64,000 nucleotides of DNA from Octopus vulgaris (lineage: Eukaryota). The stretch is from contig OX597832.1 in the NCBI GenBank assembly GCA_951406725.2, forward strand, positions 57,846,001-57,910,000, in the 5' to 3' direction. Positions 23,379 to 56,722 of the stretch are shown here, in pieces; positions within the stretch are counted from its first letter, which is position 1, and each line of letters begins with the position of its first letter. The translations under genes were made by a program, and so were the position numbers. A model generated the notes under the pieces. The model saw nothing but the letters and a program-made list of their open reading frames with translations. It was not told the origin of the DNA and did no database searches.

Positions 23379-24971
23379 ATTCATCGGCTCTCGTCAAACT
23401 GTCCAAACCATGCCAGCATGGAAAACAGACGTTAAATGACAATGCACACCGACACAAGCTTCTGTTCGACTTGCACACACAGCAAGCAAACCCGCACAAT
23501 TTCGCAGATATCGTTCAATACCCCGCTTGAATTTAGCATAAACGTAAGTAGTATAATTGTCGGTCACTGGGTTGGTTCACTACCTGTTTTATTCTCTGCT
23601 GCTAGAATATTTGAATCAGGTCTTGGTATTGAGCCTTATTGATTTTTTTTGTTATCAGTAATCTATAAAGGGCTTAATGTAACGACTTAAATCACATCCT
23701 CATTGAACAGGTGACGTTTTGGTTGTTCACCAGCTTTATTAGCCAATCAGAAACGAGTCATCTGTCAGCCATTGCATTTATATAAACAGCACAAGCTCTT
23801 TTATTCAGCACTTAACAGCTATGAATAAATAAGTCATTCTTGATTCTATCTCAGACAAGGCACCTCAGATAGAAATCATGTTTCTACACTCGTCCAGTTA
23901 GTTTCAACTCATAACCACGGGGTCACGTTGGTCAATAACGATATTTACATAACTTGTGAATTATTCACTGATCAGATGCAATCGTGAGTGTATACCTAAA
24001 AATACGGACGACATATCGCAAAGCATTTTACCTGCCGTGCTGATGATTCTACCAGCTCGCTGTCTTAATAGTGATAATGATGAGGATGATGATGATGATA
24101 AAATAATGTGTCTATTTTATTTTCCAACGTGCCACCAGAAAACAGACCTCTTCACGTCCGATTGGTACAATATCTTAAAGTAGTCAAACTGAAACAGCAT
24201 GTATCCACTACAAATAGCGTACATGTTAGGACAGAAATTCGTGCATAGACAAGTTTCAACATACAACATTAATACAAATTAAACGCACATAAATATTTGT
24301 AGGAAAATATTAGGTATACACTCACGATTGCATCTGATCAGTGAATAATTCACAAGTTATGTAATTATCGTTATTTACCAAAGTGACCCAGCAAAAAGAG
24401 CGAATGGCACAGTGTTTTTTGTTCTGATAAAATGTGGTTATGAGTTGAAACTAACTGGATGAGTGTAGAAACATGGTTTCTATCTGAGGTGTCTTGTCTG
24501 AGATAGAATCGAGAATAACTTATTTATTCATAGCTGTTAAGAGCAGAATAAAGAGCTTGTGCTGTTTATATAAATACAATGGCTGACAGATGACTGGTTT
24601 CTGATTGGCTAATAAAGCTGTTGAACAACCAAAACGTCACCTGTTCAATGAGGATGTGATTTAAGTCGTTACATTAACCCTTTTCTAGATTACTGATAAG
24701 AAAATAATCAATAAGGCTAATACCAGGACGCTGATTCAAATATTCTAGCAGCAGTGAATAAAACAGGTAGTGAACTAACCCAGTGACCGACAATTATACC
24801 ACGTATGTTTATACTAAATTCAAGTGGGGTATTGAACGATATCTGCGAAATTGTGCGGGTTTGCTTGCTGTGTGTGCAAGTCGAACAGAAGCTTGTGTCT
24901 GCGTGCATCGTCACTTAACGTCTGTTTTCCATGCTGGCATGGTTTGGACAGTTTGACGAGAACCGATGAAT
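23379..24971. repeat. Local inverted duplication: arms 23379-23999 and 24310-24971, 310-bp spacer
   Basis: Arms align as reverse complements along their length (the ORF track shows near-identical peptides at 23436+ and 24914-); the right arm has ~43 extra nt. Confidence 0.93.
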
Positions 24972-27765: not shown

Positions 27766-30056
27766 GTGTGTGTGTGATATTTGTAATATTCCAAATGTGT
27801 CCGAACCACGTATTATTGAAACGACCGTAATGAAGGAATGAATATAATATCATAACCTCCATTTTTGGACTTACTTTGTGTGTATGTGTGTGTGTATGTG
27901 TGTGTGCGTGCATGCGTGATTGATTGAAGGCGCGTAGCTTAGTAGCTAGGGTATTCAGTTCACAGTCATAAGGCTTCATGGTCATGGGGGGCCCCAACTG
28001 ATGTCTGTTATTTTCTTTGACCCTTCCTTTTTGCTGCTGTTGGTATTGAGGTTTTGAAACTATCTTGTTACTGAGGCTAATTAATTCTCCCAACCCACAA
28101 TGATTAAAATAAAGAATAAACTGTTATGACGTGGGTATAAACGTCTGGTGTAAAATGGTATTAAACAAAGAAGTAGTTGGTTGTGATTATCTAAAAGTAA
28201 CCTATCGCAGAAAATATGTGTTAACACAGAACGCACTCTGTGCTTTTCGAACGTAGGTACTATGATACTCAGCATTCATTGTTCAGCTACCGACTGTTAA
28301 ACCAACACACATCGAACTAACACGGTAAACCAACACGGTTGAACTAACACCGCCAACTATCCACTTGGCAGTTCACAATTCTTATTTAATAAATCTCTGA
28401 ACGAGGTATAAACAGTAACTGCACGACAATGTGAGGTATACTTGCCATCTCAATATGGCTAACCACTAAGGGTGGGTGTTACTGTAGCTTGTAGCCCCAG
28501 GAGAACATCGTCTCCAGCTGGCTTAAGGCACACTTTCTGTGCCCTTATGGTATTTGAAAAGGGAGGTCATCCCTCCCTCGTCAACCTAAGTGATATGCAC
28601 GGACTGCAGTTTCTAGGTATTGAACTGTCTTCAGCGTACGACAAGCACCGGTTTTCGATGAAGGGAGTCCCAATGCAAATCCTTATATCATTTTTCCGAT
28701 CTCGAAAAACTGTATGCAAGCAATAATAAATCTCTGAACGAGATGTAAACAGTAACTGCACGACAGTTACTGTTATTGAGATGGCAAGTATACCTCACAA
28801 ATTCTTATTTAGTTATTTCTAAAAACTATTATTGCTATGATTTGTTTAGACATTATGTTCGGTATTTGAAATTTGATCTTTGGACGTGTACGCCATCAAT
28901 CATGCTAAGTAATGGCGCATGGCCAGGCTGCTACACCAGTGGTCAGGCTGCTGCACTAGTCCACTCGGCAGCCAAAGAATAACCATGCGATGGATTGGCA
29001 TTTCATCCAGAGAGAGCGTTGTGATCTCGGTCACTCGTATGCCATGTAAACCAGATAAGTAGCCCTGTAAGTCCTAGGACCCAAGACAGAAGTTCATACT
29101 ACAATTAAGTTGGTCCACTTTCAGGATCCTCCCACAACATGAACTATGATGGACTAGTGTCGTATGCAGGTGGAAGAAACTGTTAAGTACTATAGAATTA
29201 AGCTGCATTGATTATTGGTGGTGGTGGGTTGGTTAAAAGTATTAACTGGTGTTAACATATAATTGATTCAAATTTTGGCAGAGGTTAAACAATTTTAGTG
29301 GAGGAGGGTTTGTCGATCACATCAATACCAGAACTTGACTACAAATTTATCTTATCGACTCCGAAAAGATGAAAGGCTAAGTTGTTCTCGGCGAGATTTG
29401 AAATCAGAACGTGAAGAGCCTAAGAACTGTTGCCAAGCATCTCGTCCGATGCGCTTACGATTCTGCCAGCTCGTATATGTTGTAACAGAGCACTGTGAAA
29501 TTCATGAGTGTTTGGTTGACTTGCAGCATCACCGTCCCATCAGTAGATTGAGCGATACAGAAAGTAGAGATAAATTCCGGTTATATGATTACTAATAATT
29601 CTGAATATAATTAAGTTGTAATTAAGAGAAGAAAGCGATTGCATCATTAAATGTTGTTATTGAGCAGCAGTGGCGGACTGTCCATGTTGCCAGCTTGCCC
29701 GATGGCAAGTGGGCCCATGTGCCATTAGAATCCATACAGGGGGGCCCATGTTAGTATTTAGGGGCTCATCCCTTCAAGTTTGAGATTTTTGTATTCACTC
29801 CTGGAAGAATGTATTATTTCGGCTTGGCTGTGTTTGAAGACAGTTAAAAAAAAAATTATATGATAGGCTTAGGAGTGGCTGTGTGGTAAGTAGCTTGCTT
29901 CCCAACCACATGGTTCCGGGTTCAGTCCCACTGCGTGGCACCTTGGGCAAGTGTCATCTACTATAGCCTCGGGCCGACCAAAGCCTTGTGAGTGGATTTG
30001 GTAGACTGAAACTGAAAGAAGCCCATCGTATATATATATATGTATGTATGTATGTA

Positions 30057-47725: not shown

Positions 47726-48653
47726 TACATATATAACGGACTTCTTTCAGTTTCCGTCTAGCAAATCCACTCACAAGGCTTTGGTCGGCTCGAGGCTACA
47801 GTAGAAGACACTTGCCCAAGGTGCAACGCAGTGGGACTGAACTCGGAACTATGTGGTTGGGAAGCAAGCTACTTACCACACAGCCACTCCTGCGCCTAAT
47901 GTTTCTAGCATTGCGTAGATGTTCTAACAGCCTCTGTCATATTTAGTGACAATTATAGTTTTCATTCTTGGTGATACATTGTAAAGGAGCACTCCGTCGG
48001 TTGCGACGACGAGGGTCCCAGCTGATACGATCAACCGAACTGCTTGCTCGTGAAATTAACGTGCAAAGTGGCTGAGCACTCCACAAACACGTGTACTCAT
48101 AACGAAGTTCTCGGGGAGATTCAGCATGACACAGAGTGTGACAAGGCTGGCCCTTTGAAATACAGGCACTATTCAATTTTGCCAGCTGAATAGACTGGAG
48201 CAACGTTAAAATAAAGTGTCTTGCTCAAGGATACAACGCGCCGCCGGGAATTGAACCCACAACCTTACGATCATGAGCCGAATGCCCATAACCACTAAGC
48301 CACACGCCTTCACAATACATTGTAAACTGCTGCCAAATTTAATTACACACTTATGTGTGTGTGTGTGTCGTTGAGCTTTTATGGCTTTGAGTTAGTTTAA
48401 CTCTTATCTTTAGCAAAAGTAGTACTAGGTAGAACACTTTGTCACTTTTGTGACCCCTATAAATTATGCCTTTAGGCTCTGATTAATAATAAGCCACACT
48501 TTTTAAATTTGTTATATATATATATATATGTTGATAAAAGGAATTCCAACCTTGTCTGATTTTCACGTTTTATTTACAATCTTATAATGATATAATATAA
48601 TATAATATAATGAAATAAAATGAAATAATAGAATGTTAAATGTTCATTCTGAT

Positions 48654-48698
48654 TGAACTAGTACTTTCATGCATTAAATTCTGCAATCTTCAGGTTCA
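48654..48698 (-). ncRNA. Minimal type I hammerhead ribozyme (mirror copy)
   Basis: Exact reverse complement of 48776-48820. Confidence 0.85.
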
Positions 48699-48775
48699 TG
48701 TAGTAGTGGTGACAGTCATGCTTCACAATTTTTGACAGTCAAAAATTGTGAAGCATGACTGTCACCACTACTACA

Positions 48776-48820
48776 TGAACCTGAAGATTGCAGAATTTAA
48801 TGCATGAAAGTACTAGTTCA
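48776..48820 (+). ncRNA. Minimal type I hammerhead ribozyme
   Basis: UGAAC CUGAAGA U UGCA-GAAUUUAA-UGCA U GAAA GUAC UA GUUCA: 5-bp helix I, intact CUGANGA and GAAA, palindromic AGUACU helix III, predicted cleavage after A48815. Confidence 0.85.
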
Positions 48821-49029
48821 ATCAGAATGAACATTTAACATTCTATTATTTTATTTTATTATATTATATTATATTATATTATATCATTATAAGATTGTAA
48901 ATAAAACGTGAAAATCAGACAAGGTTGGAATTCCTTTTATTAATATATTCTTCTATACACAATCACACACACCCGTATATATATATATATATATATTTAA
49001 GGGCTGGTAACGATTAACTCCATGATCTC

Positions 49030-51313: not shown

Positions 51314-51466
51314 GTATACACGGGTGTGTATGATTGTGTATTGAAGAATATATTACTCAAAGAAATTCCAACTTTGATTTTCACGTTTTATTTACAATCT
51401 TATAATAATATAATACAAGATAATGCAATATAATGAAATGATAGAATATTAAATGTCCATTTTGAA

Positions 51467-51511
51467 TAAACTAGTACTTTCATGCATTAAGCTATGCAAT
51501 CTTCAGGTTCA
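51467..51511 (-). ncRNA. Minimal type I hammerhead ribozyme, third copy of the 48.7-kb family
   Basis: UGAAC CUGAAGA U UGCAU-AGCUUA-AUGCA U GAAAGUACUA GUUUA; differences are confined to loop II and one G-U pair in helix I. Confidence 0.8.
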
Positions 51512-53844: not shown

Positions 53845-54171
53845 GACAAAGGCTGTTCCTACAATCAACTTCCTTACATTGTTAGCACCGAGTTCTATCT
53901 TCCATTATCTTTTTCCCACGCTATCATCATCATCATCATCGTCATCATGATCATCATCTTCACCACCACCACCACCAGCATCATCACCATCATCATTATC
54001 AGCAGCGTCATCATCACCACTACCAGAATACCAATAACTTTATTTCCAACATCAGCAGCTGCACCACCACCACCAACAACATCACCAACATTATGAACAT
54101 CAAAAACATCACCAGCACCAAAAACATCAGTACAACCGCTACCACTATCTCCACCACAACTACCACCACCA

Positions 54172-54700
54172 CCCCACAACCAACGTTTCCAACACCATCA
54201 CCACCCATCATGACAACGACGACCGCCACCACCACCATCATCATCATTACTGCTATCACCACCACCATCACCACCCCACAACTAACATTTCCAACACCAT
54301 CACCATCGCCACCATCATCTTGACAACGAAAACCGCCACCACCACCACCACCACCATCATCATCATTACTGCTACCACCACCACCCCACAACCAACATTT
54401 CCAACACCATCATCATCGCCACCATCATCTTGACAACGACGACCGCCACCACCACCATCATCATTACTGCAACCGCCACCCCACAACCAACATTTCCAAC
54501 ACCATCACCATCTTGACAACAACGACCGCCACCACCACCATCATCATTACTACTACCACCCCACCTCACAACCAGCATTTCCAACACCACCACCATTGCC
54601 ACCATCATCTTGACGACAATGACAGCCACCACCACCAACACCACCACCATCATCATTATTGCTACCACCACCACCATCACCACCACCGTCAATATCACTC
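54172..54700. repeat. ~85-110-bp higher-order repeat (x5) built from CAC/CAT triplets
   Basis: The anchors CACAACCAACATTTCCAACACC and ATCTTGACAAC recur. Confidence 0.85.
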
Positions 54701-56312: not shown

Positions 56313-56722
56313 TTACTGATATTGCTTATGCCAGCACCCCCACCGCCGCTGCTCTTTGCCGCTACCGCCGCCACCGCCATTGCTGCCACCGCCACTGCTG
56401 CCATCTCCATTGCTTTCACCAACACTGCTGCCGCCGCCACTGCTTCCACCGCCACTGCTGCCGCCACCACTGCTGCCACCGCCACTGCTTTCACCACCAC
56501 TGCTGCCGCCGCCACTGCTTCCACCGCCACTGCTGCCGCCGCCACTGCTTCCACCGCCACTGCTTCCACCACCACTGCTGCCGCCGCCACTGCTTCCACC
56601 GCCACTGCTGCCGCCACCACTGCTTCCACCGCCACTGCTGCCGCCACCACTGCTGCCGCTTCCACCGCCACTGCCACCGCCGACCTCATCGACTCTGCTG
56701 TTCTTGGTTTTTGTTGTTATTG
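56313..56722 (-). CDS. Candidate exon encoding a Gly/Ser-rich (GGGSS)n segment
   Basis: Minus-strand branch point CCCTAAC ~18 nt before TGTGTAG|; open frame ITTKTKNSRVDEVGGGSGGGS...; unit variation is mostly at Gly third positions. Confidence 0.3.
56340..56682. repeat. 15-bp GC-rich minisatellite (CCRCCACTGCTKCCR)n
   Basis: About 20 units; reads (GGGSS)n on the minus strand. Confidence 0.95.

Follow-up and report, generated by a model that had tools for sequence, protein, structure and literature searches.

EN+ Penelope-like elements (PLEs) form tandem full copies, target (TA)n and leave palindromes at their junctions (Arkhipova et al. 2013, PMC3846280; Craig et al. 2021, PMC8557442). According to the same two papers, a typical insertion has an inverted pLTR, so that it is a head-to-head palindrome, with a tail of 30-40 bp on one side only. 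Minimal hammerheads in the pLTRs of metazoan PLEs (Cervera and de la Pena 2014, PMC4209133) are of type I, with a helix I of 4-5 bp and a palindromic helix III, and they occur as thousands of solo copies as well as in opposite-strand pairs 100-700 bp apart. Neptune PLEs (PMC8557442; killifish Neptune, PMC12602865) encode an RT, a CX2-5CxxC linker and, at the C terminus, a GIY-YIG domain with CCHH-type residues; they have an upstream ORF1 and prefer (TA)n. In the green anole element Poseidon, two RT starts define the tail, insertion is independent of hammerhead cleavage and, in the available text of that report, no reads end at the cut (Frangieh et al. 2024, PMC11167929). In vitro, the hammerhead of the anole element is reported to cut only with protein (PMC11167929). 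Non-LTR retrozymes (bioRxiv 10.64898/2026.07.22.740005) are short, non-coding and PLE-derived, and bear type I hammerheads.

The locus described here resembles each of these systems. It lies in a window of 64,000 nucleotides of Octopus vulgaris DNA, the whole stretch that was analysed, and consists of two short PLE end-pieces fused head to head. It is highly probable (about 0.88) that this palindrome is a head-to-head pLTR insertion of a Neptune-type PLE; RT probably copied an uncut sense RNA from an internal start as far as the 5' end, where the mirror arm would then have been built. The palindrome is young and an ordinary by-product of retroelements of a known class.

Architecture of the palindrome and its copies in the genome

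The initial annotation had described a 407-bp palindrome with a 1-nt axis at 48737, (TA)n on either side and a 35-nt tail on the right, and all of these were found. The arms (48534-48736 and 48738-48940) are mirror-symmetric about A48737, with three mismatches per 203 bp, at 48622, 48613 and 48612. Pairing reaches 211 bp per arm in BLAST (97.6% identity), so the 407 bp are the core of a palindrome of about 423 bp. Its features, and those of a related copy nearby, are as follows.

48513-48529, no strand: (TA)n target, left
48526-48736, minus strand: inverted arm, the pLTR or 5' leader of a Penelope-like element, tail-less, with a (TA)n end
48654-48698, minus strand: mirror copy of the hammerhead motif
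48737, no strand: axis of 1 nt, the A of CTACA/GTC in full copies, likely a transcription start
48738-48940, plus strand: direct arm, the pLTR or leader in the sense orientation of the element
48776-48820, plus strand: minimal type I hammerhead motif, predicted to be cut after 48815
48941-48975, plus strand: one-sided tail, flanked by two UA-rich stretches where copies of the family end
48976-48996, no strand: (TA)n target, right
51315-51511, minus strand: solo tailed copy from an older subfamily of the same element, beginning at hammerhead helix I

With (TA)n on both flanks of the palindrome, a target-site duplication would be masked.

Amplified or long-read libraries can yield near-perfect palindromes that have a 1-nt centre, and this precedent is what an assembly or library fold-back artefact has in its favour. 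At this locus the flanks are unrelated to each other, the arms contain mismatches, and the mirror ends at the element's own ends, which are asymmetric in that only one has a tail. The junction, moreover, is biologically defined and recurs: an identical 1-nt junction was found at 80 loci (exact pattern; control 0). Nine contigs of a separate DNA run also terminate in (TA)n at the tail-less end. We therefore dismiss an artefact as extremely improbable and regard the palindrome as genuine.

A search of the animal's own 2.8-Gb assembly with the arm returned 1,296 candidates, of which 40 were scored and 29 distinct loci were read. Exact matches numbered 1,843 for the 3' half of the hammerhead and 1,455 for a pattern made of the arm's first 23 nt, against 0 for control patterns. 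Together with the 80 junction loci, these counts show that the palindrome is neither an artefact nor unique. The single locus is accordingly of little weight, being one among at least 80 alike. Copies of the family end at either of the two UA-rich stretches, within (TA)n, and include some with a 30-40 bp tail at one end; tandem or partial-tandem copies that form pLTRs, direct or inverted, are also present. Among the 15 junction loci that were read, a tail was present at one end and missing at the other in 10, and present at both ends in none; the remainder had a short or broken arm.

An exact junction common to 80 loci would also be expected if a non-autonomous palindromic element of a MITE- or retrozyme-like kind propagated itself as a unit from a master palindrome. 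We regard such an origin as highly improbable. The axis letter, read toward the tailed arm, is A in 9 loci and T in 4, and the junction is found in three subfamilies, each with its own letters in both arms. The spacers vary (1, 3, 16, 17, 22, 71 nt and more), and, unlike in retrozymes, no short hammerhead unit is repeated here in head-to-tail tandem.

The window as a whole is repeat-rich animal sequence. Elsewhere in it, inverted arms of 241 and 158 nt (95% complementary) surround a 748-nt centre at 23379-24971, with outer ends that resemble a SINE-like repeat; there are also a GC-rich 15/30/75-nt tandem array (56359-56659) and, at 54151-54687, a strongly GC-skewed long tract of (CCA)n-like sequence. 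Inspection by eye of 38 long open frames in the window revealed no frame of the Neptune-type parent and no recognisable host exon.

The parent element and the site of the junction

At 12 of the 29 best-matching loci the arm is preceded by shared upstream sequence containing remains of RT and GIY-YIG. Complete tandem units of 4,271 bp (4,275 bp in one) were present in five of the six stretches that were fetched. Each unit runs from a leader with the hammerhead through the tail, ORF1 and an overlapping ORF2 to a 3' region; in tandem units, the arm comes after the RT/GIY-YIG frame and before ORF1. ORF1 (430 aa) had no Pfam match. ORF2 (775 aa) matched RVT_1 (E = 2.3e-6), with a score of 27.9 bits that is slightly below the Pfam cut-off of 29.6, and GIY-YIG (E = 2.6e-5), and contains a CX4CxxC linker. 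The parent copies have a PLE-type RT with a DKG motif, followed by the C-terminal GIY-YIG. Judged by domain order and linker, the parent, which the initial annotation did not identify, is an EN+ Penelope-like element of Neptune type. Contigs of three runs that we guess to be RNA cover much of the unit, including the promoter, and are silent on starts, strand and level. Among the joints listed for these three contig sets there was no splice joint in the leader, and there was no strand-change joint among the 15 joints listed.

ORF1 overlaps ORF2 in the -1 frame at all five full-unit loci (L050-L054, e.g. L052:4955-8481), with U UUU UUU at the overlap, and three relatives of ORF1 (40-43% identity) retain an IHF(L/F) motif and the same stop position. 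This pattern suggests a conserved -1 ribosomal frameshift between the two frames. Frameshifting between two ORFs was rejected as a new feature, as a figure legend in PMC8557442 mentions a PLE ORF1 separated by a frameshift. ORF1 was not found fused to RT in longer proteins, which is weak evidence. A terminal stretch of a 706-aa mussel protein (P0005) is 53% identical to half of ORF1; RT similarity is absent from the Mytilus match, and the protein is possibly a gene model that absorbed element sequence.

The axis base corresponds, in full copies, to the A of CTACA/GTC, and 32 nt above it stands TATTTAA (or, in the young subfamily, TATTTATA). We take this motif to be a TATA-like box, and three further elements upstream of it to be CCAAT-type boxes. 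The 5' ends of copies lie within 4 nt of the axis at 15/29 loci, a figure obtained with a query that began at the axis and so under-samples copies ending further downstream. Among 30 copies selected instead with a pattern that lies downstream of the cut, the 5' end was within 4 nt of the axis in 8 and at the cut in none, three of the 30 being second arms of the same insertions. Genome-wide, the axis site directly preceded by (TA)4 gave 134 matches (77 loci among the 100 matches listed, and an estimated ~100 loci in all), compared to 6 matches at 5 loci when (TA)4 abuts the cut site; 3 of these have their start upstream of the cut. The intact upstream junction had 176 exact matches, from which no ratio was drawn because the pattern misses the young subfamily. 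Fold-back at the identical ACA/GT site is seen in the older subfamily as well, despite different neighbouring letters (L126, L127 and L141). A 7-bp hairpin (ACAGUCA/UGACUGU), only partly kept in the older subfamily, begins at the axis site and could stall RT there.

These motifs and boundaries make it fairly likely that the axis is the transcription start of the element. As 5' ends are concentrated at the axis and are rare at the cut, the template was probably a sense RNA that had remained uncut and was copied as far as its 5' end, and the boundary counts favour this template over both a ribozyme-processed and an antisense one. The TATA-type start proposed here is unlike the promoter of Drosophila Penelope, which is internal and TATA-less.

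A second palindrome is present at 1420-1698 of the window, within a feature that spans 1389-1698, with a 1-nt axis, 139-bp arms, a one-sided tail of 31 nt and (TA)n flanks. It belongs to another abundant family (1,765 candidates), and its arms contain a hammerhead-like variant with U3-A8 for C3-G8, a palindromic AGCGCU and a helix I of only ~2 bp. Examination of 30 copies of this family revealed no coding frame at a distance of up to 1.5 kb. TATAAAA lies 32 nt above an initiator-like TTAGTT at which 15/30 copies start, a figure with the same under-sampling of copies that end further downstream.

Hammerhead motifs and the question of self-silencing

A pattern scan of both strands of the window gave four hammerhead matches: 48776-48820 on the plus strand, 48698-48654 on the minus strand, the copy ending at 51511 and an unrelated one at 28634. 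The Rfam scan of the window gave 0 matches at the gathering score, and the call is made from the pattern scan and comparison with the literature. The two motifs in the palindrome are identical, with a 5-bp helix I (UGAAC/GUUCA), CUGAAGA, GAAA and a palindromic AGUACU, and with the predicted cut after A48815. All 13 core positions are intact (C3 U4 G5 A6 N7 G8 A9, G12 A13 A14, A15.1-U16.1 and H17). The initial annotation had reported identical hammerheads with complete cores on both strands, of the minimal kind with a palindromic helix III, and the motifs agree with this description in everything except a mismatch that it missed: helix II has 4 bp plus a U-U at 10.1-11.1, where the usual G-C or Watson-Crick pair is absent. 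According to PMC3088659, U-U at this position is a natural, tolerated variant. The match at 28634, on the minus strand, reads CUGAAGA...GAAA CUGCAG UC with a doubtful helix II, and may be due to chance.

The copy at 51315-51511 has the altered loop II noted in the initial annotation, which took it as a sign of structural constraint; it lies on the minus strand, and its helix I additionally has a G-U pair. Between the subfamily of this palindrome and the older subfamily, differences were found at 0/37 core and helix positions compared to 20/133 others (Fisher p = 0.005; 29 copies per subfamily, picked by likeness to the query, with a 4-nt deletion scored as four). The parent lineage thus kept the hammerhead motif. 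Constraint holds in this sense for the parent element, but not for the copy in the palindrome.

The most numerous young subfamily has a U4C change in the core (1,191 exact matches, compared to 415 for U4). It has near-identical tandem full-length units and, from these sequences, looks recently active. As reported in PMC3088659, U4C lowers in vitro activity considerably. The spread of U4C suggests that fast cleavage is dispensable and, together with the lack of copies beginning at the cut, it argues that cleavage does not set the end of the template.

Folding predictions depended strongly on context. For the isolated 45-mer, helices I and II were predicted, as was dimerization through AGUACU at -17.0 kcal/mol. 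Within the whole arm, predicted pairing of helix I was only 0.06-0.08, and for a transcript reading through the palindrome a hairpin of about -320 kcal/mol was predicted, with a probability of 0 for hammerhead helices I and II. The idea that a hairpin competes with the ribozyme in such a transcript therefore agrees with the model, which predicts full masking on both strands, although as an incidental consequence of the geometry. The statement that minimal hammerheads are efficient as dimers was overstated: published rates are low, with no activity for monomers and low activity for dimers of PLE minimal hammerheads in the available text of PMC4209133 and PMC6765202. The two hammerheads of the palindrome are most simply viewed as passengers.

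It had also been proposed that the palindrome silences its own ribozyme or feeds dsRNA pathways. A self-silencing ribozyme cassette, or a dedicated dsRNA source, kept for masking or for the supply of small RNA or editing substrates, would be consistent with the predicted masking, with the constraint on hammerhead positions within the family, and with at least 80 such loci, some of which would be expected within transcribed regions. We nevertheless consider it very unlikely. The promoter above the axis is lost from the stub, and active Penelope is transcribed from tandem copies, not stubs (PMC2377424). In many cases the arms differ in length or are broken (lengths of 27, 41 and 60 nt in L049, L037 and L047); they also diverge over time, from 0-7 differences in young pairs to 11-23 in old pairs, and the palindrome is a routine form of PLE insertion. 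Self-silencing is thus a by-product at best; a contribution of the palindrome to dsRNA pathways is possible.

Formation of the mirror arm and relation to known elements

How might the mirror arm be built? In the reading that we prefer, the RNA would start at the axis site, 32 nt below the TATA-like box. The endonuclease would nick (TA)n, and the nick would prime on the UA-rich stretches of the leader to give a tailed or a tail-less end; both 3' ends coincide with such stretches. The cDNA (~210 or 245 nt) would pass the uncut hammerhead and reach the 5' end of the RNA, which would account for solo copies. Its 3' end could then use the AC-N-GT micro-palindrome to re-prime, either on the same cDNA or on a sister one; once the second arm was written and joined to the target, a palindrome would result.

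Alternatively, the same element could have produced the palindrome by self-priming on an antisense transcript (Arkhipova et al. 2013). The available text of PMC3846280 argues that head-to-head palindromes require such a template, and private variants that are common to both arms (L014 and L041) fit an origin from a single template. However, the junction hot spot lies at the spacing of a sense promoter, in two subfamilies and in the second family, and an antisense RNA would need to end precisely at the junction. In addition, the in vitro work on the anole element, as far as described in the available text, was done with sense RNA and attributed the tail to a pair of RT starts. We therefore consider an antisense template unlikely.

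Within the preferred reading, from a sense RNA, the arms bear on the number of templates. In nearly all of the 29 head-to-head pairs, both arms are of one subfamily. The arms are unlike at common variants in few pairs (L124 at 7 sites, with two arm types, and L045 at 1). The evidence for two templates per palindrome was mostly negative: in 22/154 arm differences both letters were common, and most of these were in old, diverged pairs. The shared private variants lean toward one template, and a 1-nt loop, too short for a simple hairpin, together with the mixed axis letter leans toward two annealing strands.

A tentative version, which we hold to be doubtful but possible, takes the axis as the start and a capped, uncut sense RNA as the template, with a pair of cDNAs whose priming took place on opposite target strands, at the two sites that define the tail. 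These cDNAs might meet at the 5' end of the RNA and anneal via ACTGT with a central T-T mismatch, which would explain both an axis of A or T and the single tail. On the same speculative footing, the hammerhead fold may serve to pair two RNAs via AGUACU more than to cut, a role that would fit the tolerance of U4C. If this were true, genomes would hold a fossil map of the template.

Compared to known systems, the inverted pLTR, the optional tail, the (TA)n targets and the opposite-strand pairs of hammerheads are all previously published. A link between axis and transcription start was not found in the literature searched, and the supplements of PMC4209133 and PMC11167929 may bear on it. In the available text of PMC3846280 and PMC8557442, the junction is not mapped to a start site and an antisense template is favoured. 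Unlike in these reports on EN+ PLEs, the palindrome described here comprises the pLTR only, and its junction is tied to the promoter spacing. Its hammerheads differ from those in PMC4209133 by U10.1-U11.1 in place of G-C, by a shorter helix II and by a dominant young subfamily with U4C. The parent differs from described Neptune elements, among which it is placed by domain order and linker, in that its ORF1 (430 aa) overlaps ORF2 in the -1 frame. Whereas the starts in Poseidon are AC-rich and non-homologous to the target, both ends here are at UA-rich stretches that match (TA)n, and whereas retrozymes are head-to-tail tandem repeats, the palindrome is a head-to-head pair. The new part is modest: the axis lies at promoter spacing, the 5' ends of copies pile up there as opposed to at the ribozyme cut, and the most numerous young subfamily has U4C. 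A young and abundant family with identical tandem copies thereby offers a testable handle on how PLEs form inverted ends and on the purpose of their hammerheads.
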